From an uncultured bacterium (GTDB taxonomy: Bacteria; Patescibacteriota; Minisyncoccia; Phycocordibacterales; PALSA-1337): 64,000 nt of DNA. The notes under the pieces are model-generated. The model had not been told where the DNA came from and ran no database searches. It saw only the letters and a list, made by a program, of their open reading frames with translations. The stretch lies in assembly GCA_963701025.1 (NCBI GenBank), contig OY969557.1:640090-704089 (forward strand), given 5' to 3'. Below are positions 27,663 through 55,229 of this stretch, piece after piece (position 1 is the stretch's first letter; every line of letters starts with the position of its first letter). Position numbers and translations under genes: made by a program.

Positions 27663-28151
27663 ATGAAAAAAATAAAATTAACACAGGGTCAATTTGCACT
27701 CGTAGACGATGAAGATTTTGCATATCTTAACCAATGGAAATGGCACGCTATTCTCAAGAAAACTACTGGAAACTATTATGCTTGCAGGTCAGAAAAAGGA
27801 AAGCGTCTATGGATGCATAGAATCATCATAAATCCAAAAAACAATCAAGTTACTGATCATATCAATCATGATGGATGTGACAACAGACGTAATAACTTAC
27901 GACCTTGCTCTCCTGCCGAAAATAGCCGCAATAAGATGCAAGGGAAACGTAAAAATGGTGGTAAATATAAAGGTGTATATAGGCGGACAAAAAACGGCAA
28001 ACCTTTAGCAACTTGGCGAGCACAAATCAGGTATGAAAAAAGATTATATAATCTCGGTAGTTTTAATTCAGATATTGAAGCAGCAATAGCCTATGATATT
28101 GCTTCTCAAGTATTTTTTGGGAAATTTGCAAAACCTAATTTTAATTTATGA
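27663..28151 (+). CDS. HNH homing endonuclease with AP2 DNA-binding domain
   Basis: HNH motif TDHINHDGCDNRRNNLR, then the AP2 domain YKGVYRR..NGKPLATWRAQIRYEKRLYNLGSFNSDIEAAIAYDIASQVFFGKFAKPNF. Confidence 0.85.
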   Translation: MKKIKLTQGQFALVDDEDFAYLNQWKWHAILKKTTGNYYACRSEKGKRLWMHRIIINPKNNQVTDHINHDGCDNRRNNLRPCSPAENSRNKMQGKRKNGGKYKGVYRRTKNGKPLATWRAQIRYEKRLYNLGSFNSDIEAAIAYDIASQVFFGKFAKPNFNL

Positions 28152-30629: not shown

Positions 30630-30866
30630 TTATACGCTGGACAATTTTTTGGTAGGAAACTTTGATTTAAAGCCATCATATTCACATATCTTGTATCGTA
30701 AGAGGTAACGGACATATTCACTCAGACTATCATATCCTTGAGATTTCGCAATCTTTTTAAGTCGTTCAATTTCGGCTTTCTCCATCCAAGTTACCAGCCC
30801 TCTTGTTGATTCTTTATGCATGTATTTCCTTTCTTTTTTCGACAAATTGTATGATGCAACCACCAT
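30630..30866 (-). CDS. possible ribbon-helix-helix (CopG/Arc-like) small protein
   Basis: EIERLKKIAKSQGYDSLSEYVRYLL resembles the RHH pattern. Overlaps a neighbouring small ORF, so uncertain. Confidence 0.3.
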   Translation of the reverse strand: MVVASYNLSKKERKYMHKESTRGLVTWMEKAEIERLKKIAKSQGYDSLSEYVRYLLRYKICEYDGFKSKFPTKKLSSV

Positions 30867-31040: not shown

Positions 31041-31826
31041 TTAATTATTTCCGCCATTTTCTTCTCCGCTCATTATTTGTTTGATTTCTTGTAATTGCTT
31101 ACGAAGATTTTTCTTGCCTCTTACTTTATGGGCTGCCCGAAGTTTATCTCTCAGATAACACCCGCAAGATTTAGTTTCACCACACACTAGTCTCGCTCCT
31201 TCCACAACTTTTACTGTCCCACAGTCGCATAGACATTTCCAGAATGTCGTGTTATGCTTATTTTTATGGGAGAAATCTATTACAACATATCGATTATATC
31301 TTTGCCCAATCTCTATCCTCGGGTTTAAGCAACCGCAAGATTTTTGCCCATTCGTAAGATGCGATCCTCTCACCGTTTTATAGCTCCCACAATCGCATAA
31401 GCACAGCCAAAAACAATTGCTCCTATTATCTTTATGGGAGAAACTTATTACAACCAGCATCTCGAATCTTTGCCCAACCAAATCAGATCGACGAATAGAA
31501 TGCTTTCTATTTAATTTTTTACATTCTTTACTCCCACAGGTTTTGGTGTAACTTCTTTTTGATTTCGGGTGTAGAGCATTTTGAAGTGCCTCAGTTCTGA
31601 CCTCCACAAGTTTTCCGCAATCACAAAGACACCAATGCCAAGATTTTTTCTTGCCGCGATGATCTATCATAATAAATCGCCCAAGAATTTCCAACGCCCC
31701 AATCTTCTGGCCTGTTAAGTATACACTCATGCCACCTTCTTCAGCACTCAAATCGGGATTTTCTATTTTAGATTTGATATTTTTTGTGATTTCCCCAAAC
31801 AACTCATCGATCAGTTCGGTGTTCAT
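31041..31826 (-). CDS. phage-associated protein with three tandem zinc-ribbon modules (W.C.CDCG...V.....L..G...SCGC)
   Basis: Three repeats: WHWCLCDCGKLVEV, FWLCLCDCGSYKTV, FWKCLCDCGTVKVV, each followed by SCGC/KSCGC. Same module as in 50298..50789. Confidence 0.55.
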   Translation of the reverse strand: MNTELIDELFGEITKNIKSKIENPDLSAEEGGMSVYLTGQKIGALEILGRFIMIDHRGKKKSWHWCLCDCGKLVEVRTEALQNALHPKSKRSYTKTCGSKECKKLNRKHSIRRSDLVGQRFEMLVVISFSHKDNRSNCFWLCLCDCGSYKTVRGSHLTNGQKSCGCLNPRIEIGQRYNRYVVIDFSHKNKHNTTFWKCLCDCGTVKVVEGARLVCGETKSCGCYLRDKLRAAHKVRGKKNLRKQLQEIKQIMSGEENGGNN

Positions 31827-32410: not shown

Positions 32411-32786
32411 TCACTCTCCAATAAAATCAAGATAAAATCGGCCATTATTTGGATTAAAACTGATTCGCACCATCCTACCCTCAACTTCAACGTCAGCCCA
32501 CACACTGCCGAAGCCACCGATCAGAAATGTTGGCACCTCTAACGCTATTGGTATCGAGGCTGTCCCTGCTCCACGCACTTCACGCTTCGGCGATGCCACG
32601 CGAGCGGCCCGAAAAATCTTGATCGTTTCGTCCTTATGATCGCCCCAAAAATCCAAATCGTTTTCATGAATATTGACTAATGGCGGATCATTTTCATCTA
32701 CTCCCGCTTCAATGCAAGCCCTTACGGCCCGTAATGCGGCTTTAACTTGCTTTTCCAACTTAAACGCGATTTCTGAGGTAATGAAC
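32411..32786 (-). CDS. hypothetical protein; start moved to Met after promoter/leader
   Basis: The conserved leader GAAACG x4 ...CUCAAACCGGAGAAGCC precedes ATG (cat at 32784-32786). The N-terminal 37 aa of ORF 32411..32899 cover promoter and leader sequence, so they are discounted. Confidence 0.45.
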
Positions 32787-32835
32787 ATGGCTTCTCCGGT
32801 TTGAGTTTCGTTTCCGTTTCCGTTTCCGTTTCTAC

Positions 32836-32864
32836 ATTGTAGCATAGGGGAATACCCTTGTCTA
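32836..32864 (-). promoter_or_regulatory. minus-strand sigma70-like promoter with extended -10 (TGCTACAAT) and upstream CCACCCGAAATGGG element
   Basis: Reverse complement reads TAGACA, 17 nt spacer, TGCTACAAT. Upstream is ACCACCCGAAATGGGGATAG. Closely similar units occur at 33353-33400, 44409-44438 and 44897-44925. Confidence 0.5.
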
Positions 32865-34758
32865 TCCCCATTTCGGGTGGTTTCCAAAGATTTTTCCAAA
32901 TGGCCCTTCCGTGGGCCATGATTCGATCCGTCGCATTCCTCTACTTCTTTAGGCCAAGTTCATACTTCCCAACGACCGCAGGCAACTCATCCCAGCGATC
33001 CCAAGCGTCGGCTACTAGGTCTAGCAACTCATGGATTTTTCGTTTGCCATTTTCGGTCGTATCTCCATAAGTTGCGATCATCTTCGCCAATTCTAAAACA
33101 TGGCGACGATAATAAGTAGCCACACAATCCGTCATGTTCTTCAAGCCACGCGGACAACGCCGGATCACTCTGCAACGTCCTAGAAAATTTCTCGTCGTAC
33201 ATACCACATCTCCAAATTGTGAAAGAACTGAACGAACGGAAATGGGTGATCCCCAAATCCTCTATTACATAGTACGCAGGAATTTCCGTTTGTATAGGCG
33301 AAATCTCGAAAGATTTCGGAAATTTCTTTCCCGGTATTCCCCACGACTTCTTATATCATAGCATAAGGTGATCACCATGTATATACCCATTTCGGGTGGT
33401 GCGTAAAGATTTTTTAGAAAGGGTGATCCCTGATATTGAGACTCAGTATCAATAAGAAATAATGTTGACTAAGTTGATAATCTTACTAATGATTAAAGAA
33501 AATTTTCAGGGCCACCTGAAAGATGGATAGACATAGGTGTTCCCTTGTGTTAAAATAAAAGAAGAAAATTTATGGCCCTATATTTTTTATTTTTAAGGAT
33601 TTTGAAATGGCCAAGTCTAAAATTTGTTGCTGGTGTAAAAAGCCTATTATTGATGATAATTTTATTAAAGCGACTCACAATTACCATCTAAAATGCCGAG
33701 AAACTCAACAACGCAGAGCGGCAATGGGCCATAAAAAATGCCCAACAATAAATCGATCGATTCCAGGCGGGGAAGGTAGGAGAGTGCTTCATTCAAATAA
33801 ATCTATTCAATGATCAAGGTAATGGTTGATCGTGAGGCCATTCTTCTGTACATAACGCCGCGATCTTCGACCTGAGTTTTTCGACCATCATTATACGCCC
33901 AGCTTCAGTCAAATTTTTGTACGACGGATCAATTTGCTCGGAGAGTATCACAATTGATGTGGCTAATAGGGTGCCAAGCACATCGCAGATAAATAGTGGC
34001 CCTGTTTTCTTGTCCCCCAAATCGTGCTCTATGAGTGGGAAAATCGCATCGGATAAAGCGATCCTTCTTTTCTCCCAATTCTCTGGGGATATGCTCATTC
34101 CGATTGAATCTCTATTTCGAGCGTGAGTTCATCGAGGAGCAGACCTAATTCCTTCGCAGAAATATCGAGTTCCCGACAAATCGCGGATTTCTTTATCCTT
34201 CCTTTCGCGGTACAAGCGACTCCTGGCTCCATATAGATAAAATCTAGGAGCCGAGAATATTTACCATCGTGGAGCAAATGTAAATACTTAATTAAATCAT
34301 TGTTTATTGTTTGCGAGAGAAAATTAGTGGCCATAACTTAATTTAGTTATAACGACATTTATTTCTTCAATCCCAGAAATCCTTTTTCAATTCCATTACT
34401 TGGGGTTTATCATCGGTAAAATAATCAGGAAGACTAATGTCATAAAACACATCGTCCAATTGACAAAACCAACAAATCTCTCCATCCGTTTGATGTCCGA
34501 TTTCGTCGGTACATCGTTCACAAAATCTAATATTCATTCGTCACCTCATCCATATAATTTAATCTGAATTCCAAAACTTTAATATAAGACAAAACGGAAG
34601 AACACAATTCCATCCATTCATCGTCATCTCGATTACAAGAAATTTTCTTAAAAGCGTCCTCGGATCGCAATCTAAAATCCTCGTTCGCCGCGTCCAACAA
34701 ATCTTTAACCGGAATCAATTCCAATAACTCGTCTACGTGTTTAATTATCTCACTCATT

Positions 34759-36042
34759 TTATTCTCCTAAAAATTGTTTGTAATCTTCGTACCCGTCTTC
34801 TTTCCATATATCTTTGGAGGTATGTACCTCCATTGAAATTCTCATCCCCTCTCTGCCTAATATTTCTCGACTCGCAACCAGCATCTTCTCTTTGATCATT
34901 TCCTTTATTTTATCGATATTCGTTTCGTCACACAAGACATAGATTGCATCATGCAAAGGAAATATTATCTCTATTTTTTCCTTATGGATTAAATTTACCG
35001 CCTTCCGTAACATATCTTGAGCGGTTCCCTGAATTGGAAAATTTTGATAAGTATTAAGTTTTTTATCAGGCCAAAAAGCCCAACCCGATTTCAATAAAAT
35101 ACAATCGCCATTTTCATATTTTTCTTTGAGACGATTCCTGAAATCCCAATAATTAGTATAAAGTTCATGATGACAATTTCTCAATTCCGTAACTTGTTCT
35201 GAATCAATTCCAAGATTAATCGCCGCTTTTTCTACACCCATACCATAACCAACTCCAAGTATAAATGCCTTACTTATTTTTCTTGGAATTTTTAACCCTG
35301 TCTGTTTTGTAAAAGCCTCATACACATCTCCCGTTAAATATGCCTCGATCATATTATCATCTTTTGACATACAAGCAGCAACAAAAAATTCTTGCGTAGA
35401 ATAATCTGCTGAAATAATAGCCTTCCCTGGTTCAGCCCTAATTAACGCTCTTAACCATTTACTTTGGGCTGGAATGAAAGTTTTTGTTGGTGGAGCATTT
35501 CTGGATGTGAGTGTCCCAAATGCATTAAAATAACAACGAATTCTATCGTCTTTCCCTACTGCTTTATCGAATTCTTTTTTAGACGCCGGGCTATAGGCGG
35601 CCATTTCTCTTTTTAGTTTCTTTGTTGTTCTAAAAAGCTCAATTTCCCGTAGATTTTCATAATCTTTTAATACTTTATCTTCTGTTGAATATTTTCCTCC
35701 TTTTGTAAGTGGCCAAGTATCTTGTAAATTCTTACTACAAACAAATTGATTAAATAAGTAATCCTTTTTCTGATACTCTGGTTGGATTCCTAATTCTTTT
35801 TCTACTTTTGTTTGTTTTTTCAATTCATAAAATTTATAAACTTTGTTGCATTCTTCTATTGAATGTCTTGTCACTCTCTCAAAATTATTTGATAGATTCT
35901 GGATTGCTTTTCGATCAATCGGAATTCCTACCGACTCAATCTTCGCTAAATCTACACACCATTGTCCACGATTATGCTGAAATTGTTTTATGTTGCGAGG
36001 ATTTTCTGGACGATATAGGAGTTCTTCGAGAGCATTTGTCAT
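34759..36042 (-). CDS. family A DNA polymerase, polymerase (palm/fingers) domain
   Basis: Motif A ISADYSTQEF (DYSQIELR-like), motif B RKISKAFILGVGYGMG (R...K...F...YG), motif C PLHDAIYV (HDE-like). Confidence 0.8.
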   Translation of the reverse strand: MTNALEELLYRPENPRNIKQFQHNRGQWCVDLAKIESVGIPIDRKAIQNLSNNFERVTRHSIEECNKVYKFYELKKQTKVEKELGIQPEYQKKDYLFNQFVCSKNLQDTWPLTKGGKYSTEDKVLKDYENLREIELFRTTKKLKREMAAYSPASKKEFDKAVGKDDRIRCYFNAFGTLTSRNAPPTKTFIPAQSKWLRALIRAEPGKAIISADYSTQEFFVAACMSKDDNMIEAYLTGDVYEAFTKQTGLKIPRKISKAFILGVGYGMGVEKAAINLGIDSEQVTELRNCHHELYTNYWDFRNRLKEKYENGDCILLKSGWAFWPDKKLNTYQNFPIQGTAQDMLRKAVNLIHKEKIEIIFPLHDAIYVLCDETNIDKIKEMIKEKMLVASREILGREGMRISMEVHTSKDIWKEDGYEDYKQFLGE

Positions 36043-36108
36043 TTCTGATACAAAGCGGGAAGGTAATGAATATCAGACATACAATATTTTATAATGTCTA
36101 CTTGCTCT

Positions 36109-36537
36109 TTATCTGTATATTCTTTTTTTGTCCTGTAATATCAAAGCACGCATCTCGTCTTTTAGGTGGGGATCAGAGTCAACGCCAAGGAACTTCAATT
36201 TTGCATTGATGAGCTTGCATTGCGTTCTACCATAATCTACTTTTATTAATGTATCATCCTCTAATGAAACATATTCAGGTTCATCATATTTGGAATAATA
36301 TTTTTTCTTCCATTTTTCTGTTTTTTTATCTTGATGCCATTGCCAGCCATATTTCCAATCAGTTTCATTCACCAATTGTCTGAATTCAGCGTGAAGGTCA
36401 ATCCATTCATATTTATCTGGGTCAATTCCTAACGAAAGAAAGCATCTGATTTCCGCAATTACTGCATAGCCTACACAGGTTTCTCCCTCTAATGCTTGCA
36501 TTCGTTTTTTGAATGCATCTAGGGATTGATCTAACAA
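36109..36537 (-). CDS. putative N-terminal segment of the family A DNA polymerase (same frame, separated by two stops)
   Basis: 142 aa ORF in the same reading frame as 34759..36042. Separated from it by TAA at 36109-36111 and TGA at 36073-36075, which are 12 codons apart. Confidence 0.35.
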   Translation of the reverse strand: MLDQSLDAFKKRMQALEGETCVGYAVIAEIRCFLSLGIDPDKYEWIDLHAEFRQLVNETDWKYGWQWHQDKKTEKWKKKYYSKYDEPEYVSLEDDTLIKVDYGRTQCKLINAKLKFLGVDSDPHLKDEMRALILQDKKRIYR

Positions 36538-37236
36538 CCAATAATTTTCTATTGGTTGATCTTCAACCTAAGGGAGCAACAAAATACCCTTTGTTGCCGT
36601 TCATTGCTTTGGGTAAATTCAAAGTCGAGGTAAATCATATTGTGAAATTATTATCCTTAATGTTGAGGTTGGATAGTGCCATGATTCGTGAGTAACTTTC
36701 CACTTCCATTTAAATTCTTCACATAATGTTTCAATCTCTATTAAATTCTTCTTCTGTAATATGATAAGGTTCAGTAACAAAATGTTGAACTCCATCTTGG
36801 GTAATGTGACCACAATGATCCATCCATTGACGATTACCACCCCTAAAAAGTTTTTTATATTTACTCTCAAACCATTTAGGAGTTTTATATTTGGTTTGTA
36901 GTTTCTTTTTTCTTTAACGGTTATCGGGCTTTATTGACTTCCTGATTCTCGTATCTTACAAGAAATTTATCCCCCGGTTTCCCACATACTGGTTCCCATT
37001 TACCACCAATATCTTTTTGCTTACCTTCTAAAATTTCTCTAACTTCTTTTGATAATGATTCTATCATTTAATTCTCCAGTGTTTCAAAATTACTTTTTTG
37101 GATTGCTTTTTTACAAATCAAATAAACTCCACCATCACTGTCACATAATTTTTTCTCCTTTAATTTGTCATGGAAATTAGAAATATTTAAGTAGATATTT
37201 TTCATACCCATTGTTCACACACCATTTCATATTTTT

Positions 37237-38110
37237 TTAGATTTTATTAACATCACTGGCTGCTTGCTGCCTGCCATAATTTTCATAACCAATCCATAAT
37301 TCAAAAGTCCCTTTGGCTCTATACCCTTCTTGAATTTCCTCTTTTGTTTCCCATAAAGGATGATCTACCGTCATTGGCACATTATCCTCTTGATTGATAG
37401 ATTGCCATAAATCAAGAAAAGGGAAATCATAAATTTCACGAGTTAAATACTTTGTACTTACCGCCCCAATCATCTCATATTCCCACATTCTGCGTTGCCC
37501 TGTTTGATCTGGGGCAATAACATAAATGTGTTGGTTGCTAGTGAAGAGCAAAAGAGAAAATTTTAGGAATCCTTTGGTATTGTTGCGTGAAAAATACACG
37601 ATTTGCAAATTCTCTACATTGCGTAATATTTTTGAATTGGTTCATTTGGGCACCATTCAAACTTGCTTGCTCTTTGCCACCCGGTTCGCTGATAATCAAA
37701 ACATAATTGGTAGAACCAAAAACAAAAAATTGATCTTTGAACATATCTTCAAAATTCATTTCAGCCGTATAGCCATAGAGTGGCCCTTCTATCTCACATT
37801 TATCGTAATAGTGAGGGCCGCCGCGTGTCAGTAAAGAGGCAATTGTATCTTTGCCAGTTCCTTGCGATCCTTTGAAATTGATAAACATATCATAAAAAGT
37901 TGGCAATTGATAAACAGATTTTTTTGTATTCGTCATCCAATGTTGCAAAATGATTTTATTAATCTCGCTTGGTTCAATGTGAGCCAACTCAAAAAAATTA
38001 TGAGATAAATCATCAAACTTATACTTTTTATTATACTGTAATTTTTCCTGCAATTCGTTGAGTTTTTCAAATTTGTTATCCAAACATACAGCCTCAAACA
38101 TATCCACCAA
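37237..38110 (-). pseudogene. P-loop NTPase, D5/SF3-helicase-like (putative primase-helicase), split between two frames
   Basis: ORF 37538..38110 has Walker A FKGSQGTGKDT and a Walker-B-like YVLIISEPGG. ORF 37237..37608 continues in another frame, overlapping 37538-37608. Confidence 0.45.
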
Positions 38111-38234
38111 ATATCTTCTTTCTTTTGCAAGGGGTAAGCCCGTTGTCCATCAATGATAGGAATGTTGTTATTGTATTCCATAACCCCCTCTTTAAGACGG
38201 ATTATTGCATCTGCCCGATTACAAGGAATATTCC

Positions 38235-38612
38235 CTATCTTGAATTTGCTGTGTTCAAACTAGATATTTTTTTGAGTAATAATTTCTTTGCATAAATCTT
38301 TGTACCTTGCCTCTGTTGTCCAACTAAAAGTAATGTATGGTGTCGTTCATCCTTTTCTTTTAGAAATTTTTTAAGATTCTCTATAAACTGATCAAGGCTG
38401 ATTGCTTGTTCTGAGTGTTTTTGGGAATATTCCAAAAACATTTGAGGTAATTGATCTCTACCTGAGTGGCTATTCGCATTATGATGTAGCCATTTACCCC
38501 CAACAAATTTATACTTCTCTAAAATTTCATCAAATTCATCTTGTTTCATACATCTCCAATAAAAAAAGCCGTTGGTAGTCATTTGTTTTGCGAACAATAG
38601 AACTACTACCAA
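38235..38612 (-). CDS. hypothetical protein (replication module)
   Basis: 125 aa ORF upstream of the D5-like NTPase on the same strand. Likely internal start at MKQDEFDEIL. Confidence 0.3.
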   Translation of the reverse strand: MVVVLLFAKQMTTNGFFYWRCMKQDEFDEILEKYKFVGGKWLHHNANSHSGRDQLPQMFLEYSQKHSEQAISLDQFIENLKKFLKEKDERHHTLLLVGQQRQGTKIYAKKLLLKKISSLNTANSR

Positions 38613-40699
38613 CAGCGATTACGATTTAGTTGTCACGTTGGCAAAACAAAGATTAACATAAATCAAAAGTGGAAGCAAGAGAAATATAGAAAAATAATGA
38701 AAAATATTTTTGAGGTGTACAACTAAAAAGTTATTAACTGAATTTTTAGAGGGTAAAAAAAGGGCCTTTTTTTTGCTTTAACTCTTTATGTGGAAATACT
38801 TTATATCAAAAAATAAGGCAAAAATCCCATTTCTTAGTATATACTTTATGATCTAGGACTACACTAGTTAGTAGTTGATTTGACTCCAAGGTTGGTCTAT
38901 AGAATTCTAAAAAAGGAAGAGCGATATTTGTAATCTGCCCATCTTAACATTTTGACTATAATATAAATTATTCTGCATTTTACCAGAATTTTTTGATATA
39001 ACCTTCGATTATACAAGTTAAGTCAATTTTGACTTCCTAACTTTTTTACTAAGGACTTTTATTTATGGCTAGTTTAGAGTATGAAGCGTTAAATCTCGAA
39101 GAATGCGTGGTGCCAAAGAGGGCTATCCTATAGCAAAAACGAAGATCGACCAGAAATTTATGTTAAATTGCCCCCGAACGGCGGTTATGCGCCGGCAACG
39201 TCTAAAATTTAACCCTAAAGTTCCGAACACCTCGTTCTATGCTTGGACGCGATTGCATTATTTGAGCAGTGGCGATAAGCAATTTGCGGTACATTGCCCT
39301 AAAGACAGACCTGATGCCCGTACAGGAGCATTGGCAGTTGGTGATTGGAGAATCCTGATAATATTACAATAAGTTGTGGCAGGACAGCCTGAAAGTCGAA
39401 GGTAAGGCTCGGGACGATATACAAGGTTTGGCAAGACGATTAAAACCTGATCCAGCGAATATTATTACAACACGAAGGTCATTGAATCCTACGACTAGAA
39501 ACAAGGTAAACTAGAGGTTCCCCAAAACGCTCTGATTTTATCCGTAGGCCTGCAATTGCATAGTAAAATCCAACTTAATATCTCGGGGACGCAGACTCTG
39601 GATTTGAGGGATTTGGAGACATTACTAATTTGGAATCCGGTCGTAATTTCAAGATTATCAAAAGATGGTCAAGGGAAACGGAAAGCAGTTTCCGAATTAC
39701 GATCAGTCTGTTTTCCTCGAACCGTCCCCTTGCGAAGATTGCGTGCCGTACCTCGAAACGCGGCACGATCTTACCACGATTAGAGCTTTGAAATCCGAGG
39801 ACGATCTTGAACTGGCATTAAAACGTCATTTGGGTCTACTCACCGATGATTCGGAATTCGATTTTCTACAAAACTAAAAAATTGGATCAGGTTCTTTCCA
39901 ATTTTAAACCCCTATTGGCTCCTTAGATTGTTTCTATTGAGCCACAGGGTTTATATTATTTTATATTTAAACAATACCATTTATTAGGATTTAATCATGT
40001 CAGAAGAAATTAGTCTCAAGAGTCAATGGGGAGAAACAAATTATACTGTCCATTGCAAATTTATAACTCCATGTTTGGGCACGTCGCCCGAAAACCAAGC
40101 GATCTGGAGGAACTATGTTGCGACCAAGTGGAGCAAAGAACTGAAGAAGGAGGGTCTTTCCGAAGAGGAAATATCCGCAAAACTGGACGCGGAGCAGTTG
40201 GAGGTCGCGGATTACACCGACGATGCCACAGGTAAGACGGTATTCCTCAAGGACGATATAGGATATTATATTAAAGCGTATATGGTTCGCGGGTTCCTAC
40301 GAAATTGGCCGCTACTATGAAGCAATTTGGGGCGATGAACCAACTGAAATCGGTCGTAAGTAAGTATTTGTTTGTGTATGGGGTTGAGGACTCCACAAAA
40401 ATTTATCTCGCTGGAGCAGATGCGAAATTGGAGATTTGTGAACGTCCGTTACGAGCGTCCACACCTCAAGGGGAACGAACCTCAATTTCTCACGGAAGAA
40501 ATCCCTCCAGAGACCAAATTTTCATTTAAAATTAAGACTCTCCACTATCAAATCCCAACGAATACGATTGTTAAGTTGTTGCAATACGGAGAATTAGTAG
40601 GATTAGGGTGTTGGAGAAATTCCGGGAGATGGTAGGTTCGTCGTAACGAAATTGATTAAGGAAGATTAAGTGAATGTGTCCCCATGACACGCAACGTAG

Positions 40700-41123
40700 A
40701 GTCGAATAAAGTTTAGTGTATGAACCGTTTAGTTATGTATACGTAAGGCATGGTAGAGTATTGTACAAGTAAAGTTGCGTGTAGTGAAGGTAAAGTAAGG
40801 TATAGTCTAGTTAAGTAAAGTGGTACTGTTATGCCGAGAAAGATTTGGTAAAGGCACTGTTATGTGATTAGAAGTAATGTGGAGGTATGGTTCTGCATCG
40901 TCATGTTAAGGTCTAGGTATGTAAGGTGGTGTATAGTGAAAGTAAAGTATGGTGTGGAAGTGTATAGTAGTGGGTATGTAAGGTGATGTATACTTAATTT
41001 TGGTGAAGGTAAAGTTAGGTTGAGTGCCGTTCGTCAGGGCATGGTCTGTCATGTAAGGGATTGTAGTATTAGGTTGGGCCAAGCTGGAGTATAGTGAGGT
41101 AATGTGGTGTGAATGGATAATCC
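40700..41123 (+). repeat. C-depleted G+T-rich degenerate repeat tract (GTAAGGTG / GGTAAAGT / GTATAGT units)
   Basis: About 420 nt with about 5% cytosine on the + strand. Built from reiterated GTAAGGT, GTGAAGGTAAAGT, TATGTAAGGTG and GGTATAGT units. Has no ORF and ends at an intrinsic terminator. Confidence 0.6.
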
Positions 41124-41165
41124 CGTAGATTAAAGTTTTATTCCTTAATCTACGGGATTTTTTAT
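41122..41165 (+). terminator. Rho-independent terminator (plus strand)
   Basis: CCCGTAGATTAAAG-loop-CTTAATCTACGGG followed by ATTTTTTATT. Confidence 0.6.
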
Positions 41166-41600
41166 TGTATTTAATTTACGCAAACTTTCCAAAAAATTCA
41201 GCGGCTTTGAGATTAAATTGTTCTGCCTCTTCTTCAGAATCATAGTAGCCGAGAAAATATTGCTTATAGCCACAAGTAATTTTATAAACCATCTTTTATT
41301 GTCTTTATCCCAACTTACTCCTTTGTATTGAGATGATGTAGGCTTACCATTTCTCCAACTATTCTTTATTTTCATTGTGGTGGTTTTCTTGATGATTACA
41401 AATGCTCGAATTTTCTCGTTTATTATCTAAAGCGTTATGATTAATGTGATCAACAGCTTCTTCTTTTTTGCATTCATGATAAATCTAGCCATATAAACTT
41501 TCTTACTTTCCATGTTGGTTACGGCGTAGAGGAATATCCATTCCATTTTAAATACCAATTAAAAGGTAATACTTTTCATATTTTTCATCATCTCAAATAT
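41145..41600 (-). pseudogene. degraded HNH-AP2 homing endonuclease
   Basis: Reverse-complement frames give AVDHINHNALDNKRENS (HNH motif) at about 41430-41480, then in another frame the AP2-like YKGVSWDKDNKRWFIK (ORF 41145..41375). Confidence 0.45.
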
Positions 41601-41699
41601 TGGTTTGTCTTTTGTTGGTATTTCTTTCATAACTATATTATACTATGCTTTTCTAATTGGAATAAGAAGATTTATTGTTGCTCGCTAAATACGAACCGC

Positions 41700-42830
41700 A
41701 CTCATTAATAAATTTATCGATACTCCTTATCTTAATTTTTCTCCTCGACCAGATTCAGTCCCAGAATGGGATCAAGAATTAGAGTGTTTCAGTTGTGCAG
41801 CGAGCAGACAGCGTTTATCAATAATAAAGATTTAGGAATTTCAGTTGTACTTGGGGGTAATGGTAGCGGTAAAGATTTTACCGGGTATTATAAGATGGTA
41901 AAATAATTACTGACGTCACCTCCAGTTGATCTTGCTAAATTTTGGGTAGTTAATGAATCCATGTCGGTGGTAGGAGCCTCTTGGCAGGAACATGGAAGAA
42001 TGTTTTTTCATGATCAATTAATAGAGCATATTGAGTGGTATAAACGGTCAAGTTTATATCCTAAAGCAATTATTTTAAAGCCACACCCAGCGAACGGTAA
42101 TCGATATAAAATAGAGTTTCATCGTATCAGCAATCAGTGGGGGCTTTCGTTGGTGTATCTCACACCGTTGGAATGTGGCTAAAGGAATATGTCAATATGT
42201 TTTTGGTTAAAGAAAGTATGAGAGGTAGAGAAATTTAAAACTCAATTCCTGGGTAAGTATTATAACTTTGACACCAGATTAGCTCAACCCAGAACTTAAG
42301 GAAATTTTAACAATCAACAAGCCCATCCAACTTTTAAGTTTTACCTATAATACAGAAAAGAATACTGCTATTAAAAATTTGGAATGGATTAATTCGATTT
42401 CGATTGATCGTAGAGCATCTCGATTATATGGATTTTTTTCTCACCCAGAAGGAAGAATATTTAAGGAATTCGATTGAAAAAAACATATTATTCCGAGGCG
42501 ATCTTTAAATCTGCCCAAGATCTATTATCTTGGTGTTGACTTTGGATCGACTTCAGCCCACAACACGGCTGCAATTGGGTTGCGGAAGAGAATCCAAAAT
42601 ATATTGTTTATGACGAATCTATGATTAGCCGAGAATTTATCGCAGATAAAAGTTAATCATATTAAAGAAAGAACAGCCAACCTTGAACCGCAAACATTGG
42701 GCATAGGACACTATTCGGGGATTCAGCAGCGAATCAAGAACGAATGGAATTAAGTAAATCGTGTTTTACCCCTGACATCATGGAGAAAAGAACCAGTTGT
42801 GGTAGCAGACACATTGCGTGAGAACTCTAT
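41700..42830 (+). pseudogene. terminase large subunit remnant (ATPase Walker A and nuclease-domain fragments, multiple stops)
   Basis: Fragments across frames include ISVVLGGNGSGKDFTGYYKMVK* (Walker A, about 41850-41920), ORF 41961..42182, YYLGVDFGSTSAHNTAAIGLRKR (about 42520-42590) and ENLSQIKVNHIKERTANLEPQTLGIGHYSGIQQRIKNEWN. TAA, TAG and TGA stops all occur between the pieces. Confidence 0.45.
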
Positions 42831-43330
42831 TCCTTCAAAATAAAATTAGTTCATTATGGATCTTTGATCTAAACATTTCATAAGTTAAATCAAGGTAATA
42901 ACCAATTGAGGGACCACAAATGAGATTAACCGAAAAAGAGAGAACCATGAACTTTGGTGGACAGTCTCTAAGGTGTCTTATATCTCCATAAAATTGAACC
43001 ATAAAATTAATCATAAACAAATCGGGAAACCAATAACATTTCCGAGAGCATTTGGATGGGAGAGATACTATATTAATCTCCAACGTCAAGCAATAATGAT
43101 CATATAACACTAACGTCAAGCAGGAGCCTATGAATACGACAACAAAATGGAAAAGAACTGAGATCGAGAGCTCATCAAGCCGCTCAAAGTCCCGAAGCGG
43201 GGGGAGACGCTTGGAAAGAGCGGCTGTCCAAGCAAGGGACGAAGCCCCCCCACCCCCCGAGAGGAAGGAAAAATAGATTGCTCCGGCCGGGGTGGTAAGG
43301 CCAAAGCCCGTGAAGGTAAATAAAAGTGCA

Positions 43331-43555
43331 CTATTCTGGTCGAGATGGGGGATTTTTATTATATTCGAGTCGTTCTGCAAAGCCCCCCACTTCCATGTTT
43401 TCACCACCGCCAAATACTGCTGTGACAATCCCCGTAATCACCCACCTTTGGTTGGGCAAGGGCGTGGCGGATACACATCCGCCATTTTGCAGTTCTCGCA
43501 TCCCGTGGCCTTCGCAGCAATCACAAAGTTGTGGCATCTTGCTCGGTTTCATCAC
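43331..43555 (-). CDS. small Cys-rich protein (CDCCEGHG)
   Basis: 74 aa ORF preceded by the conserved leader AAACCCAAAGGUGAAGUG-ATG. Confidence 0.45.
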   Translation of the reverse strand: MMKPSKMPQLCDCCEGHGMRELQNGGCVSATPLPNQRWVITGIVTAVFGGGENMEVGGFAERLEYNKNPPSRPE

Positions 43556-43841
43556 TTCACCTTTGGGTTTTGCATTGTGTCATTGTTAGTAGTCCCATCA
43601 CAGGAGAGATTCGCCAGCCAATCGGAGCGGATGCGTCTGACGCCTGCTCCCTTGACATCCGCTCTGGCTTCCGACGCTGTATCAACGGCTTTGCTTCGTC
43701 AAGGCGGCGAAGGGAACCTGGATTCCCCCCGCTTTATCTAATACACATCCCATCGCCACCAACATTTTATACGCATCAGCCGAACGAGCTTGCGAATTTT
43801 TGCACTCGTACATTACATCACCTTTGGGTTTGAGTTCGTAT

Positions 43842-44113
43842 TCAGTCATCGGAGTCCTCCGCCAAATCCCAAGCCGATTGGTATAGGTCGTCGTCGGCGT
43901 GGACTACTTCGCTTGCCCGATAGTTGCCCGCTCGGATGAAGCTCTCCATTTCGCTGGCTGGCATATCATATACGGCTTTCGCCTGTGGATACTCGGCTTC
44001 GCATAGTTCGATCATTGTTGCCAGTGCCGTTTCCTGATCGGCTTCGCTTTCGGGGCCATCGAAAAAATAATCTGTATCAACCAATACGATGTGTTTTTCG
44101 GTTTCGCTTTTCA
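43842..44113 (-). CDS. small acidic protein; start moved to MKSETEKH after conserved RBS
   Basis: GAAAGGUGAAGCG-AUG leader. ORF track 43842..44180 would begin inside the upstream leader. Confidence 0.45.
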
Positions 44114-44130
44114 TCGCTTCACCTTTCTTT

Positions 44131-44370
44131 CTATTTGTTGGTTTTTTGATTTCCGCTCTCGTTTTCCTCTCTGCTTCCACAACCGCCGCCCCCCTTTGGG
44201 CAAGTGTGCATCACATACCACTTTTCGCCGCAACGCTCGCAAGTGGTGTAGTCGCTCGGCTTCAATTCAGGGGGCTTTGTTGATCGTGGCCCAGCACAAT
44301 CATCACACAAAAGCCCCATACCACTTTTACGATACGCTCCCGACGATCCACAATTAGAACAAGTTGCCAT
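44131..44370 (-). CDS. small zinc-ribbon protein (CSNCG...CDDC...CERCG...HTC); start moved to MATCSNCG
   Basis: Promoter TTGCAA, 17 nt, TGGTACAAT and leader GAAACGGAAACGAAACUCAAACCCAAAGGUGAAGCG lie just upstream of ATG (cat at 44368-44370). The upstream part of ORF 44131..44544 translates that promoter and leader. Confidence 0.5.
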   Translation of the reverse strand: MATCSNCGSSGAYRKSGMGLLCDDCAGPRSTKPPELKPSDYTTCERCGEKWYVMHTCPKGGGGCGSREENESGNQKTNK

Positions 44371-45052
44371 CGCTTCACCTTTGGGTTTGAGTTTCGTTTC
44401 CGTTTCATCATTGTACCATAGGGGAACACCCATTGCAAGCGAATTCCGAAAAGATTTCAGAAAAAAATTTCCCCCACCTTTTGAGGGGTGGAAGAGAGCT
44501 TCGGTTGATGCTTGTAAAAGATACTTCAAAGGATCAGCGATCATAGCCTCGTAGCCAAGATAGGTTCGTCACCCGTCTTTCCAACATAACGGGGAACTCA
44601 TTTCTGCCGAATTGGTTGCCCCCTGCTAATCCCACATACCGACTGACCACAAACCGCCCATCCAGATAGCCAACACTAGATTCTCCGCGCTTGCGACATT
44701 TTCGCAGACTTTTTTCGAGGCGATTTCGACCGCGTACCAGCATCGTGCTGTTTCCAGGTCCATCATCTTTGCCTCAATCAAGTCGGCCAAACTAGAAATC
44801 CTTCTACGATCCGAGGACGCTTGCCATAAATTTCACGGCTTGTCATTTTTCGTTCCCTTGTTCGATCGGGTCGGCGAAGTGCCTTCCCACGCTTACATTA
44901 TAGCATAGGGAACACACCTGTCCAGCAAAATCAGGGAAATTCCGAGAAATTTCCAAGAAGATAATCGTGCAAAATGCCCTAGACCTTTGTACCAATGACC
45001 TCTTCTTTCGCCCTGGAAAGGCTAATTTTTTACGATATATAAGGGTCAGGGA

Positions 45053-45986
45053 TTGGGGAAGCGAGATTCGCCTCGGCTTGTAAGTTTTATGCTAAAAAAT
45101 AGTAAACAAAAAAGAATGGAAAATCAACTTATTCGACAGGCGTTGAATAATGGCTGGGATGTTCCGCCAAAGATAAAGAAAAAGGCCGTTAAGATGATGG
45201 AGAAAATCCTCGATGCACCTGACAAATATTCAGGCAAAGTTGTAGTGCAGGCTGCAAATACTCTCGTCAAAATGAATCCACCTACGATTACATCGCATGT
45301 ACAAGTCGATCAGACGAGCGAGGATTTATCAGAAATATCTCGTGATCCAGAAAAATATATGGCTTTGATGCAAGAAAAACTAAAAGAAATAAAGTCATTT
45401 AACTCCGATAATGGTGTAGAGCAAGTGGCTAAAGATGGAACATTTTATGAAGCAATCAGGAAAGCCGAATTTCGAGGGGAAGCCGAATTTCGAGGAGATG
45501 ATCTTGAGCCTGACTCAGAGGGTTGAAGCCCTTGAACGGAGCGTAAATCAGCCCTCCAATCGAGATAGATTATTCAATAAAATAAAAGAAGAGGAGAACG
45601 ATGGAAAACGAGTTCGACGAATTGAAAAGAAAATAAACAAGATGGAGGAGAGATTGAACAAAGTGGACGGGAAGCCGAAGGCTTGTAAGATAAATAAATC
45701 TATTATTGCAAATCCTTCGGATTCCCCGATCCCTCCACGATTGACCTTAGAATCAGTCAGTCATAAAGTGGAAGAAATTGAGAGATTACTCGATACCTCT
45801 CACGATCATATTCACGAGATGACGAAAAATTCGGAATACGAATTACAAAATAAAATAAGTAATCTTCAAGATCGGGTCGATCATGTTTCGTGGCGATGTG
45901 GAGGAAATACTTTTTTTAATTTATTCTTATTGGGTTGTGCAATATTTTGGGTTGTTGAACATTATCATTTATTTGGAGTAAAGTGA
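45053..45986 (+). CDS. coiled-coil protein with C-terminal TM helix; frames switch at an 18-nt tandem duplication
   Basis: ORFs 45053..45526 and 45435..45986 overlap in different frames across the tandem repeat gaagccgaatttcgaggg/gaagccgaatttcgagga (45467-45503). The C-terminal hydrophobic segment is FFNLFLLGCAIFWVV. Confidence 0.4.
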
Positions 45987-48034
45987 TGCCCTGGCATGTT
46001 CGTAAAAAAGGAAATAAATATCAAATTGTAAAAACCAGCACTGGTAAAGTGGTGGGCACTTCGGATTCAAAAGCGAAAGCAGAGGCATCAATCAGAGCGA
46101 GGGAAGCGGGGGAAGCCAACGGCTTGTGAGATAAATAAACCTATTTTTGTAAATCCTTCGGATTTCGGCGGGAGCAAATGAAAAATAAATGGATAATCGA
46201 AAAATTAAAGCCGACCGAAGATATGATATGGGCGACTGAATATTGGAAAAGATGCAATATTATTGCTCATAATGTGCGGATGGGAACAGCAACAATAACG
46301 GTAAATAATAGTGGGGTAACAATCTCGATAAATAATAACGGAATTCGACTAAAAAGAAAATAATGATAGTACAAGTATTCAACTCTGTAAGCGGGAAGTG
46401 GGAGGAACAGATAAGGTTCCAAGGGCGATCGGTTTTGTCGCATTTCGACCCGAATCCTGAGCCGATGTCGAGTGATGTGAGGATGCCCGATTTGATGGTG
46501 GGAGAACATAAAGTTGTATATGATCCGAAACTTGATCGGTAAATCCGAAGGAAATAGCAGGGGTTTGATATAACCTCCATTGAAGGTCTACATTTCTTCC
46601 TAAGAACTATGAAAAGAAATGATTAATATAAAGGAAAAGCATACAGCAACTTGGAAATGGAAATGGAACTGCAACCGTATAATCCGCAAGAGCCTGGAAG
46701 TTTATTTTTTTGTCCCTCATGCCTTTGGTAATAAATGGCATCAATACATTAAAAATAAAGGAATAACTCAATGTAATGGAATATTGTGGAATGATTGGCG
46801 TGATTTTTTGAAAACAGACAATTGTGTAAATGAACAAAATATGGAAGATTATTTGCTTAAAATTTATGGAGAGGCGTTGTGATTATACTTTAAGTGACTA
46901 TAAGGAACTCAATGACCATCGATAAAAATATACTTTATGTTTTGGCTGGAATCTTAGCTCTTGTTCTCGGCTGGAAATTCTATTTGGAGCCTGAAATTGA
47001 AGCCAATATTTTAGATAAAATAAGTCAAAGACAGGAACTTTATACGCCATACAAGCCAAAACCTCATTGGCGAGATAATGACCTTGATAATATGAGTCAA
47101 GATGAAGATGGTGCGAATGATGCAGTCGATCCAAACATAAAGAAAAAAGTAATACCTTCTCCAAGATTTCAGCAAGCCCCTTTTCAAAACGGTCAAAATT
47201 GTCCGAATTGCCGTCCGAACTCGCCGTATTAAGGAAGATATGTACAGAATTGTATTAAAATCTGGAGTTAAAATAGAAGTTGATTCAGTGGACGAGTTGA
47301 AATCGCTTGTCAATCTTCTTGATAATCAAAAAGAAAATCATAATGTTCCGCCAGCAATTGAAGAGGCTATGCGTAGGGACTTGCAAGATAATTTCGGGGA
47401 TCGGCTTGCAAGTCCCACCGAACAAGCATTAACTAAAAATGGTTCAAGAATTCCTCAAGGCGATATGTTAAGAAAAATCTTTCAAGATAAGAATGGGGAT
47501 CGAAGTGGGTAAGTAATCGGAAAGGCAAATCCGAAGGATTTCCGACTCACATATTCTTTAATACCCAATCATAATGTTCAGGGGCGAATTTTCTCAACCA
47601 ATGGGTAAACCAGATTCCATTTCTATGGGCTGAATAACGACCGAATACATGGCAAGAAGGGCATAGGCTAATTCCGTTAATCAACAATAAACTGAATTCT
47701 TTATATTGTTTTTTATCAAGAGATGATGAGCATTCAGGTGCGTTGTCTTCCCGCATACGAGACACTTCCCATCTCGCTCTCGGATTGCTTTAGACCATTC
47801 TCTAAGGGTCATCAACAATCCTTTCTTTTATTTTACCTGTGGCCCAATAGTTCGGGAGCATTTCCCTCAATTCTTTTTCTAATCTTTCTGAATTCGCAAT
47901 ACGATTCCCATGTATATCAATAAAATATCCTTCCCCAGTGGTCAATGAACTTCTCCAACTAACTTGCCGTCTTCAAATTGATATATTTTATCGAATTGTC
48001 TAACATAACTGATAATATCTTTCATTATATTCCT

Positions 48035-48594
48035 TTAATCTTTCTTTCCAATAAAACTGATTTGGCAGATTGCATTCTTCATGGTTTGATCTTCAATTCC
48101 TTTATTATAATCAAAATTAAGTATTTCGGGTGTTACAATCATTGAATTAAGTCCATAGGCTGCAAAGTATCCAGAGAGAATGCTGGCGTCCCAATGATTA
48201 TCCCTCCCAACTTGTTTTCGAGACAGCCAATAAGAAAAGAATGTTTGTGATCCAAGTTGAATTTCGGAGGCCAAGTGCATTTCTCGTAATAAATGTATTC
48301 AGGAACCACGATGTACATCCACCCACCGACTTTTAGTATGCGACACCAATTCTTTATAGTTTCAGGAATGTCCCTCATATGTTCAAGGCAATGAGAAGAA
48401 TAAACATAATCATAAGTTTCATCGGGGATATTTGACATTAATTGAGCATCCCCATGTCCTAATTCCCGATCAAAAGGTTCTGCTCCTTCGAGACAATCTG
48501 GCCCGCAACCAATGTCAATTCCTCTACCTTGAAAGTAGCGATCAAAATGGCCCCAAGATTTGCGAATATTTTGTAATTTTTTAGTTTCGTTCAT
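48035..48594 (-). CDS. class I SAM-dependent methyltransferase (Methyltransf_11-like), frameshift near 48280
   Basis: ORF 48139..48594 has motif I GIDIGCGPD, DYVYSSHCLEHM, and KVGGWMYIVVP. It continues in ORF 48035..48280. Confidence 0.6.
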
Positions 48595-49610
48595 ACAATC
48601 CTCGAATTGCCTTTGGAGGCGTAAATGAATTTACGATATGTTCAAAGCCTTCTTGCCAATGATCTCGCCTGTGTTGTGATTGCCAAGACCATTCGGATGC
48701 AACAAAATCCCTCATATTTAGAGGAACTTCAAGGGCTGCTCCGATCGCTGCTTCCCAATTATCATGCCAAGCGATATACCCCGTCACCCCATCTTGGATT
48801 ACTTGATTATATGGATATGCATCCGATGCCACTACCGTCAGTCCGAGTGCCCACATTTCTTGAACTCTAAGAATCGACTTACAAACATTAAATTCATCAT
48901 TATGGAGGGGAGCAAGTCCGACACTACATTGAGTTGCAATATAATTAATACTTTCGTGATATACGGGAAAGTTCACCATCGGATAATAAAAAAACATTCT
49001 CTCCGATTGGATCAGTATGCACGTTTATTCCTTTTGCGGATATTCTTGTATTCTGCCTTGGAGTCAGTCCGAGAAAATGGAATTCAGTATTTGGCATCTT
49101 AGTGGTTATGTCACCGAGATGATCCAGATCAGCAAGATGCGTAGGACTTCCGCTCCATAGGCAACCTTTTTTAGTTCTTTGAGGTGCCTCGTACTCATCC
49201 ACATCAATAAGATTTGGAAGGATGTCAGCATTCTTTAATATTTTTGCGAGAGGCTCGGTGGTAGTCCAACGAAAATCTGCGGTATCGAGGCATTGACGAA
49301 GTCCGTATAAATCCATCTTACCTATGTGGCGAGTACAAGGATTGTCAGGGTGAATACTAAAAAAATTGTCGTCATTGGTCCAACAGAGTCGGGTGAATCT
49401 TGCCAGTTCCAAGATACCAGGAACGCTCGCAGGTTCGGGACAATTAGCAAAACAATAACACTGGCAATTTTCAGTTGTTTTTATTATTTTTTGCTCTAAA
49501 GAAATGCCCTTCTTCATTAGCGGTTCTCGAAGCCACCTTATCGGCAACTCGGCTCGTAAAAAATTTAATGTGAGACTTCCTAGAGGAAAGTTCATTATTA
49601 TTCTTTTCAT
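48581..49610 (-). CDS. glycosyltransferase group 1 (GT-B)-like, split in two frames
   Basis: ORF 48581..48997 has a GT1-like C-terminal region (SVGLAPLHNDEF...LRVQEMWALGLTVVASDAYPYNQVIQDGVTGYIAWHDNWEAAIGAAL). ORF 48945..49610 is the N-terminal part. Confidence 0.45.
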
Positions 49611-50297
49611 ATTTTAAGGGAGTAATTATATCTCCAACCTTTTCCCATCATCGCCAGAAAGACTTACCATATTTTTATTAATACTAGCCATTTTTGTTAT
49701 GCGTTTACCCAAGTTCCTTTCTCGGTTCCACATGCATTGGGATGCGTAATTTTTAAACTTACTAACATCAATTTTTTTAATCTTAGGGGCCTCTGACTCG
49801 GGCACATTTTCTTTAATTATCGTTTCTAACTCATTTTCTTCTTCAAGCCCAAATTTACTTTTTCTAGCCCCGTGATGTTTTCTATTTTTCCAATCAGTTT
49901 CAAGTTGATTTATTTTTATCAGGGTTGATCCACTCGTATATCTTTTTGCGATCTCAAATGAATTTTCAAGGTGTAGGAATCGCTTGTAATAACATGCCGC
50001 TGAATACATGTCAATCAAAATTTCTTGAGTGATGTCATCAAAACTATCTTTTATTGTTTGAGAATTACCTCTCACCAACTTATGGGAAATAAAATAAGCC
50101 AATTTAGCATACTGATTATGGAGATCGACATACTGTTCTTCTGACAACTTGTATTTGATGAATATAAAATTAGTGCTAGACATACTGATTGATCCTTTTT
50201 GGAGTCGTTAGAATTCTTTCAATAGTCCAGCCACGCTTAATGCGGGTATTGAAGGCCTGAATGCTAATTCCTATTTCTTTTGCCCATTCTCGTCTAG

Positions 50298-50789
50298 TTA
50301 AACTTTTTTTATTGAAAGTAATTTTAGATCGGCGTTTATTATTTTGTTGCTGGAAATTATTCGCCCATCTACAATTGTTTTTACAATATCCTTTATCGTT
50401 ATCAACTCTATCAAGGGATAATCCTTTTGCTTATCGCCCATATCGTTATAGAAAACATTAAAGTCCAGCCATTCCTCGCAGATTTTTATTCCTCTACCTC
50501 CATAATCTTTATAGCCAGTATGGTTTTGGTTAAGGCACCTTTGTTTCATTCCACACCAAATGCTATAGACATCATCATACGCTTTACCGTGTTTGGTTGC
50601 AACTTTTATACGTTGGCATCCGCAAGAATATTGGTGTCTTTGGATAAGATTGCTTCCAAATATTTCTTTTTCTTTTCCGCAATAATTGCATCTGCACATC
50701 CAGAACCATCTTTTACTTTTATCTTGACGGGTAGGATAAAGAGCAGTTAGTCCACCGAAAGTTTGATTTGTTATATCTTTACGTGGCAT
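50298..50789 (-). CDS. phage homing-endonuclease-like protein: zinc-ribbon module plus YGGRGI/HNH_3-like region
   Basis: FGGLTALYP...WFWMCRCNYCGKEKEI...SCGC module, then YSIWCGMKQRCLNQNHTGYKDYGGRGIKICEEWLDFNVFYNDMG. Paralogous to 55230..55754. Confidence 0.55.
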   Translation of the reverse strand: MPRKDITNQTFGGLTALYPTRQDKSKRWFWMCRCNYCGKEKEIFGSNLIQRHQYSCGCQRIKVATKHGKAYDDVYSIWCGMKQRCLNQNHTGYKDYGGRGIKICEEWLDFNVFYNDMGDKQKDYPLIELITIKDIVKTIVDGRIISSNKIINADLKLLSIKKV

Positions 50790-50816
50790 AAGTAAGATTA
50801 TACACTAAATAAACAT

Positions 50817-55206: not shown

Positions 55207-55229
55207 GTTTCCTTTTAAGAAGTGCTTTC

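Follow-up and report, generated by a model that had tools for sequence, protein, structure and literature searches.

The early promoters of phages T4, SPO1 and phi29 are near-identical, strong promoters for the host RNA polymerase. They are conserved past the hexamers and head short early units, and promoters of this type often follow terminators and A-tract or UP-like DNA. The bases in the spacer of such promoters are not normally read base-specifically by sigma-70. The start-associated sequences (SAS) of Cluster K mycobacteriophages are asymmetric boxes of 13-14 nt with a Shine-Dalgarno (SD) core, located 3-7 nt before the ATG (PMC3203893). The stoperators of Cluster A mycobacteriophages are asymmetric repressor sites in a fixed orientation to transcription, and one class of them lies over the early promoter (PMC9283540, PMC6550527). 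Prophages in Paceibacteria have already been reported (PMC12455944). Here we describe five candidate promoters, S1 to S5, in a prophage of a bacterium of this group. They are located in a 64-kb stretch of contig OY969557.1 (assembly GCA_963701025.1, positions 640,090 to 704,089), and this whole stretch is called the window. The five sites probably constitute one family of housekeeping sigma-70/extended -10 promoters, which would be used by the host RNA polymerase and head short early units of the prophage.

Four of the sites are located on the minus strand and one on the plus strand.

32836..32864, minus strand: candidate promoter S1, read from 32864 to 32836; -35 TAGACA (32859-32864), 17-nt spacer with GGTATTCCC, TG and -10 TACAAT (32836-32841) as TGC-TACAAT

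33355..33383, minus strand: candidate promoter S2, read from 33383 to 33355; -35 TATACA, 17-nt spacer with the palindrome GGTGATCACC, TG and -10 TATGAT as TGC-TATGAT; the most diverged of the family

44410..44438, minus strand: candidate promoter S3, read from 44438 to 44410; -35 TTGCAA, 17-nt spacer with GGTGTTCCC, TG and -10 TACAAT as TGG-TACAAT

44897..44924, minus strand: candidate promoter S4, read from 44924 to 44897; -35 TGGACA, 16-nt spacer with TGTGTTCCC, TG and -10 TATAAT as TGC-TATAAT; 11 of 12 consensus positions

33528..33556, plus strand: candidate promoter S5; -35 TAGACA, 17-nt spacer TAGGTGTTCCCTTGTGT with GGTGTTCCC, TG, -10 TAAAAT

The -35 hexamers match TTGACA at four or five of the six positions, and the spacers measure 16-17 nt, inside the accepted range of 16-18 nt. 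An extended -10, defined as TAnnnT with A2 and T6 and with TG one base upstream, is present at every site (TGCTACAAT, TGCTATGAT, TGGTACAAT, TGCTATAAT and TGTTAAAAT). The -10 reads TAnAAT in four of the five promoters and TATGAT in S2. All five are intergenic, in gaps of at least 100 nt, and are positioned 25-150 nt 5' of ATGs that carry an SD. S4 is the first leftward promoter and occupies the divergent gap between the minus-strand early arm and the plus-strand late genes. An earlier note on this DNA had proposed four minus-strand sites with a -35, about 17 nt and an extended -10. All four are present, with spacers of 16-17 nt and the form TGnTAnnAT. The -10 sequences listed for them are also found, in an order that differs from that of the sites. 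S5, which is divergent from S2 and belongs to the same family, is an addition to these four. A scan with a generic sigma-70 consensus recovered S1 to S4, and S5 independently.

The sites share considerably more than their hexamers. Alignment of the five promoters gave a mean column identity of 76% and the consensus TAGACA-n-GGGTGTTCCCCTATGc-TAnAAT, which can also be written TAGACA-n-GGGTGTTCCCCTATGn-TAnAAT. S1 and S3 contain the string TTCCCCTATGNTACAATG without a change, S4 contains it with three mismatches (3 matches against 0.14 expected by shuffling), and the three occurrences of GTGTTCCC in the window are all within these promoters. The spacer contains an asymmetric box, GGTRTTCCC, which is found in or near all five promoters. 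It is exact only four times in the 64-kb window, and none of these copies lies elsewhere than in or beside the promoters. Three exact copies occupy one spacer position, in S1, S3 and S5, and S4 has the box with one mismatch. The S2 copy is exact but inverted (GGTATTCCC on the plus strand, 33333-33341), about +10 to +20 of the S2 transcript. A linked pattern defined after the fact, TTCCC-N2-3-TGNTANAAT, gave four matches against 0.04 expected, every one at these promoters, and was not found in 80 related host loci. GGTGATCACC and GAAATCTTT were each not enriched on their own.

Additional elements are found 5' of the promoters.

32867..32895, minus strand: upstream block of S1, with CCACCCGAAATGGG (32867-32880) and AAAAATCTTT; (G/C)GAAA at -11, -21 and -33 from the -35

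33386..33414, minus strand: upstream block of S2, with CCACCCGAAATGGG (33386-33399) and AAAAAATCTTT

33431..33451, no strand assigned: 21-bp near-perfect palindrome TGATATTGAG-A-CTCAGTATCA, between the divergent S2 and S5

44935..44954, minus strand: two 11-bp-phased direct repeats, GGAAATTTC and GGAATTTCC, 5' of S4

32900..32919, minus strand: hairpin ATGGCCC-ACGGAA-GGGCCAT after the stop of the upstream open reading frame (ORF), -12.7 kcal/mol, z = -2.7; weak terminator candidate

33504..33521, minus strand: hairpin TTTCAGG-TGGC-CCTGAAA with a U-rich tail; acceptable terminator candidate for the upstream minus-strand operon

44470..44495, minus strand: strong intrinsic terminator with a 9-bp stem and a U7 tail, at the end of the S4 unit

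A search of the window found CCACCCGAAATGGG exactly at the two listed positions only. These two copies agree with the earlier proposal of a shared upstream element, but its coordinates were off by 1-2 nt, and the element ends 2 nt 5' of the -35 (about -38 to -51) rather than 10-25 nt beyond it. The element has a dyad of only 3 bp and is embedded in a block of 63 nt in which S1 and S2 are 76% identical. Its location fits an activator site or UP element rather than a promoter-occluding site, and an operator role for it is hypothetical. We hypothesize that the spacer box GGTRTTCCC is the better candidate for a site of a shared protein, and that the operator assignment should shift towards it. The coordinated early-gene regulon of the earlier note is a hypothesis as well. 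The (G/C)GAAA elements recur near -11, -21 and -33 relative to the -35 hexamers, and the palindrome GGTGATCACC in the S2 spacer is located at 33367-33376.

Stable hairpins precede three of the promoters, which suggests that the early arm is divided into short units. They are located 36 nt (S1), 121 nt (S2) and 32 nt (S3) from the respective -35, and their folding z scores range from -1.9 to -2.7. A GC-rich hairpin with a full U-run is present at 44470-44495. The U-run is acceptable at 33504-33521 and weak at 32900-32919. When the sites are divided into an upstream block (U), a spacer/-10 block (P) and a leader (L), a mosaic kinship becomes apparent. S1 consists of U, P and L, S2 of U and a spacer of its own, S3 of P and L, and S4 and S5 of P only.

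The leaders of S1 and S3 are also closely related.

32789..32832, minus strand: S1 leader; four GAAACG copies, AACTCAAACC (32798-32807), SD GGAG (32794-32797), 5 nt, ATG at 32788

44371..44406, minus strand: S3 leader; two GAAACG copies, AACTCAAACC, box AAACCCAAAGGTGA (44375-44388), 4 nt, ATG at 44370

33203..33348, minus strand: S2 leader, about 146 nt; inverted spacer box (33333-33341), hairpin with 8-bp arms (33299-33318), partial inverted copy of the upstream block (33233-33246)

The GAAACG-repeat leaders of the earlier note are borne out, with four copies at 32809-32832 after S1 and two at 44395-44406 after S3. A 23-mer, GAAACGGAAACGAAACTCAAACC, is exact in both leaders, against 0.00 expected by shuffling. 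The two leaders are rich in A and C and free of U. The S1 leader folds less well than any of 200 shuffles (z = +2.53), and a lack of structure is also seen in the S3 leader. Three or four evenly spaced ACGGAAA units are found in the leader, in addition to the GGA in the SD. No leader matched an Rfam family at the gathering score, and only the six tRNAs matched in the whole window.

A 14-mer, AAACCCAAAGGTGA, is exact before three ATGs, those at 44370, 43813 and 43552 (3 matches against 0.53 expected). The full boxes are located at 44375-44388, 43818-43831 and 43557-43570. The ATG at 44114 shares only AAAGGTGAAGCG, with a partial box AAAGGTGA at 44119-44126, and the ATG at 32788 shares AACTCAAACC but has GGAG as its SD. 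The earlier suggestion of five genes with a common initiation context thus holds exactly for three of them and partially for a fourth, whereas the fifth has a different SD. The start positions given with it were 0-6 nt away from the real ATGs at 32788, 44370, 44114, 43813 and 43552. The shorter pattern AGGTGA-N4-ATG gave four matches against 0.41 expected, all at the starts of non-paralogous ORFs. The SD-containing box is found in one orientation, always on the minus strand of the non-structural arm (43.5-44.4 kb), and before unrelated genes. Its AAACCC flank reaches past what pairing with the 16S rRNA needs. As the box is present inside the S3 operon before unrelated small genes, it is expected to act at the level of translation.

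The promoters head units of small genes.

32411..32788, minus strand: first gene after S1, 125 aa, ORFan

33029-33202 and 32941-33135, minus strand: two small overlapping ORFs after the S2 leader

33607..33813, plus strand: ORF after S5, 68 aa, basic, rich in Cys and His, SD AAGGA, antisense to the leftward operon

44626..44846, minus strand: S4 unit, with a 22-aa ORF (44778-44846) and a 46-aa ORF (44626-44766, SD GAGG)

43331..44370, minus strand: S3 operon of four small unrelated ORFs, each with its ATG 4 nt after AGGTGA

44131-44370, minus strand: S3 operon ORF, 79 aa, zinc-ribbon-like

43842-44114, minus strand: S3 operon ORF, 90 aa, acidic

43682-43813, minus strand: S3 operon ORF, 43 aa

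43331-43552, minus strand: S3 operon ORF, 73 aa

The product of the gene after S1 had itself as its sole match among 5.8 billion proteins. The proteins of the S3 operon showed no obvious mutual similarity on reading and no shared family match. Two small proteins had been put forward as regulators, a ribbon-helix-helix (RHH) candidate at 30630-30866 and a winged helix-turn-helix (wHTH) candidate at 34095-34334. The first gave E = 0.066 for RHH_1, below Pfam's cutoff. Single-sequence AlphaFold models of the two reached a pLDDT of only 63 and 48. Neither candidate had relatives in PDB or a match in PHROG, and their RHH/wHTH identity could not be confirmed. No genes for cI/Cro-like helix-turn-helix (HTH) proteins were recognised near S2 and S5.

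The prophage is located in the chromosome of a Paceibacteria bacterium with a tiny genome, a member of the Candidate Phyla Radiation (CPR). The source contig measures 876 kb and was also encountered in run ERR11718638. The window starts with host genes, including those for PilM and TypA/BipA and six tRNA genes. The host TypA is 83% identical to TypA of Candidatus Paceibacterota metagenome-assembled genomes, and its best matches are all from Patescibacteria. From about 29.7 kb on, the DNA is phage-like and lower in GC. Its minus strand carries early and replication genes, and the late genes, among them one for a Mu-type portal, occupy the plus strand from about 45 kb. The nearest relatives of the portal are 37-42% identical, and those of the family A DNA polymerase (34759-36537, minus strand) are 35% identical.

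Translation signals in the rest of the window differ from those of the S units. The host-side and late genes (1-29000 and 45000-64000) are mostly without an SD. Of 66 ORFs that are 100 aa or longer, 9 have a TAnnWT box whose end is exactly 6 nt from the ATG, which is a leaderless geometry, and TG often precedes the box. Examples are found at 8571-9545 (minus), 11494-12387 (minus), 19539-20183 (plus) and 22374-22964 (plus). Boxes of the form TGnTAnAnT occur at host and tRNA genes of the window, as in the tRNA upstream regions TGCTATAGT and TGGTATAAC. Because these boxes are alike, the S promoters appear to be of host type. Their long SD-bearing leaders are unlike the host genes seen in the window.

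Several further features of the window were noted. The polymerase frame contains two internal stops, a TAA near 36109 and a TGA near 36070, which are some 12 codons from each other. Its closer relatives are mostly single proteins of about 610-750 aa. The gene is either split or a pseudogene. Stop-codon recoding was considered and rejected, because two different stop codons interrupt the frame. The VapE/D5-like primase-helicase region (37237-38612, minus strand) is split over three or more overlapping ORFs that do not share a frame, an indication that the replication module is decaying. Between 38.6 and 43.3 kb, few ORFs and no family matches were found. An array of 21-bp-period repeats related to GTGAAGGTAAAGTAAGGT (40706-41025, seven copies and dispersed ones) resembles iterons and may represent the origin of replication of the phage. 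Free-standing genes resembling HNH/AP2-type homing endonucleases are unusually many (27663-28151, 31041-31826, 50298-50789, 55230-55754, 55721-56188 and 56757-57290), several of them on the opposite strand within the late operon. The late region also contains a pair of 77-nt blocks, about 90% identical and with a small hairpin (53521-53597 and 54016-54094), each of which ends at the ATG of adjacent genes. A separate late pair of 55 nt is 89% identical (45669-45723 and 46110-46164). On the host side, tRNA-Arg(ccg) is duplicated in tandem (10576-10831) with an identical 70-nt upstream sequence, and a serine recombinase gene adjoins it (11494-12387). This locus may be an integration hotspot or the edge of a larger mobile region. 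No att repeat of at least 14 nt was found around tRNA-His.

Relatives were searched for in several collections. Megablast found nothing similar to 30-45 kb among 50,697 phage records. The exact 23-nt leader was absent from the viral and from the genome collections scanned (0 matches each), and the promoter-plus-leader pattern had 0 matches in metagenomes. A 19-mer ribosome-binding context, AACTCAAACCCAAAGGTGA, had 0 viral and 8 metagenome matches, about chance by our estimate. All eight lack the ATG context and have no proteins in common with the window. The promoter block had two viral matches, in a phage of 57% GC none of whose proteins is found in the window. In the IMG/VR contigs L083 (5849-5866) and L084 (746-763), we observed TTGCAT, 17 nt and TACAAT with the identical spacer/-10 string TTCCCCTATGGTACAATG. 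Its presence in an unrelated viral contig reflects either convergence or coincidence in a promoter-like site. Contigs of two distant relatives, L001 and L093, contained no comparable reiterated cassettes in the parts retrieved. Exact look-ups of the window's proteins found them mostly not on record.

A simple model can be proposed for the promoter family, and the anatomy of the sites supports its promoter and leader parts well. Host RNA polymerase with its housekeeping sigma would start leftward at S4, S3, S2 and S1, and rightward at S5, and the hairpin terminators would keep the units separate. The S1 and S3 transcripts would open with the (GAAACG)n-AACTCAAACC leader, which would remain unfolded and bring ribosomes to a strong SD. 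The AGGUGA box 4 nt before the AUG would then give efficient initiation, and AAACCCAAAGGTGA would serve in the S3 operon as a stereotyped translation-start element. We infer the firing of the promoters, its timing and the recognition by the host sigma from the DNA alone. The box GGTRTTCCC(C) and the upstream GGAAA and CCACCCGAAATGGG presumably tune promoter strength or bind a common regulator. The family itself presumably arose by internal duplication and was kept by selection.

Several points weigh against this model. The generic sigma-70 scan of 28.5-48 kb gave 63 matches against 60.8 in shuffles, with no overall enrichment, so the signal rests on the sequence common to the sites beyond the hexamers. 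In S2 the -35 is weak and the spacer divergent, and the U-tail of the hairpin 5' of S1 is poor. The phage, viral, genome and metagenome collections searched contained no related phage in which conservation under divergence could be seen. The identity among the copies could mean recent duplication rather than selection. Finally, the polymerase is interrupted and the primase-like gene is fragmented, so the prophage may be decaying and the promoters might no longer matter.

The same features can be read in other ways. A phage DNA-binding protein could switch all five promoters through GGTRTTCCC(C) and/or CCACCCGAAATGGG and the phased GGAAA(T), with the divergent S2/S5 pair and the 21-bp palindrome as the core of an immunity switch. 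We regard such a shared regulator as rather unlikely, although several features argue for it. Sigma-70 rarely constrains spacer bases, yet GGTRTTCCC is exact at one position in S1, S3 and S5, one mismatch away in S4 and, in S2, repeated exactly but in inverted orientation at about +10 to +20. The window contains no exact box elsewhere, and the linked TTCCC-N2-3-TGNTANAAT is absent from the 80 host loci. The phased (G/C)GAAA, the 11-bp repeats at S4 and the palindromes at 33431-33451 and GGTGATCACC point in the same direction. The candidate proteins speak against it, with E = 0.066 for RHH_1, a pLDDT of 48-63 and no match in PDB or PHROG. The upstream block has two copies only, in a duplicated 63-nt block 5' of the -35, and common descent predicts the spacer identity equally well. 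The unrelated 57% GC phage has the same 17-mer, TTCCCCTATGGTACAAT, in a promoter-like site, so this string can arise without a regulator of this phage. A broader version appears doubtful to us. It would combine a single immunity/early regulon, under a small phage protein that reads GGTRTTCCC(C) with auxiliary GGAAA or CCACCCGAAATGGG, with SD-and-leader translation (a (GAAACG)n standby site and AAACCCAAAGGTGA) imposed by the phage on a largely leaderless or SD-less host. Control could also act on the RNA, with (GAAACG)n, AACTCAAACC and AAACCCAAAGGTGA as a ribosome standby site or enhancer, or as a platform for a phage factor or a CsrA-like protein that reads repeated GGA. The three or four evenly spaced ACGGAAA units with the GGA in the SD, the extremely unstructured leader and the AAACCC flank beyond the need of 16S pairing are consistent with this, as is the box at the internal operon starts 43813 and 43552, independent of any promoter. 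The SAS elements are a documented precedent (PMC3203893). However, there are only 3-5 copies, the window is without csrA, and no binding factor is known. A strong SD and recent duplication may suffice, and there are no relatives to show conservation across gene families. We consider control of this kind unlikely.

It is also conceivable that the similarity has no coordinated function and shows only that one promoter-leader segment was copied recently, through illegitimate or homologous recombination. The mosaic relationships of U, P and L among S1 to S5, the other duplicated intergenic blocks in the late region, the many HNH endonuclease genes and the disrupted replication genes would all fit such copying. 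The functional promoter positions are kept exactly, however, while the flanks differ, and each copy is placed correctly 5' of an SD-bearing ORF, three of them with an upstream hairpin. The plus-strand S5 is in the same register. Passive duplication is thus very improbable in our judgement. Finally, the repeats could be N-terminal codons of longer ORFs, which do exist at 32411-32899 (...NGNGNGN...) and 44131-44544 (...KLKPKGE...), and at its eight metagenome matches AACTCAAACCCAAAGGTGA appears within coding sequence, as judged from flanking sequence only. Translation of these ORFs would have to cross both a terminator hairpin and a complete promoter, one of the two would start with TTG, and the internal ATGs have optimal SDs and spacing. 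The coding reading was rejected on these grounds, and we assign it almost no probability.

To our knowledge, there is hardly any experimental work on promoters, translation signals and phage regulation in CPR/Patescibacteria, and we know of no CPR promoter that has been characterised experimentally. These bacteria cannot be grown alone. The locus provides candidate signals within a small space and with internal replicates, namely a promoter consensus, an unstructured leader and a 14-nt start box, which may be usable as expression parts in CPR organisms. The SD-bearing phage early genes, next to leaderless-looking host genes, hint at a way in which the phage might compete for ribosomes. If true, the reading that combines the regulon with SD-leader translation would be the first model, at the level of sequence, of how a phage controls its genes in Patescibacteria.

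Comparison with known systems showed both likenesses and differences. Like the stoperators of Cluster A, the spacer box is a short asymmetric motif in a fixed orientation. Stoperators have about 20-30 copies, however, and many are dispersed through transcribed regions, whereas here there are five, of which four are exact and one is near. All five are located within promoters or next to them, and none is in the late region. The box AAACCCAAAGGTGA resembles SAS in its single orientation, its restriction to the non-structural arm, its placement before unrelated genes and its absence from the host sequence examined. It differs from SAS in its copy number (3-4 compared to 10-20), in its sequence (AAACCCAAAGGTGA compared to GGGATAGGAGCCC) and in having no 17-bp inverted repeats of the extended SAS (ESAS) type. 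As in the divergent switch of lambdoid phages, S2 and S5 are arranged back-to-back, at a distance of about 145 bp, and palindromes are found between the two and also within them, but the palindrome between them overlaps neither promoter core, and no cI/Cro-like HTH was recognised. The five sites have the same -35, 16-17 nt spacer, TG and -10 as sigma-70/sigma-A extended -10 promoters and are likewise intergenic and 5' of genes. In addition, they share a spacer box of 9-10 nt and upstream elements, which the class does not require. The reiterated layout is like that of the early promoter families of T4, SPO1 and phi29, although the sequences are unrelated and the copies number five. Reiterated early promoters are a familiar and ordinary layout in phages. 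The main notable point is that they are found here in a CPR host, whose own genes appear largely leaderless or SD-poor.

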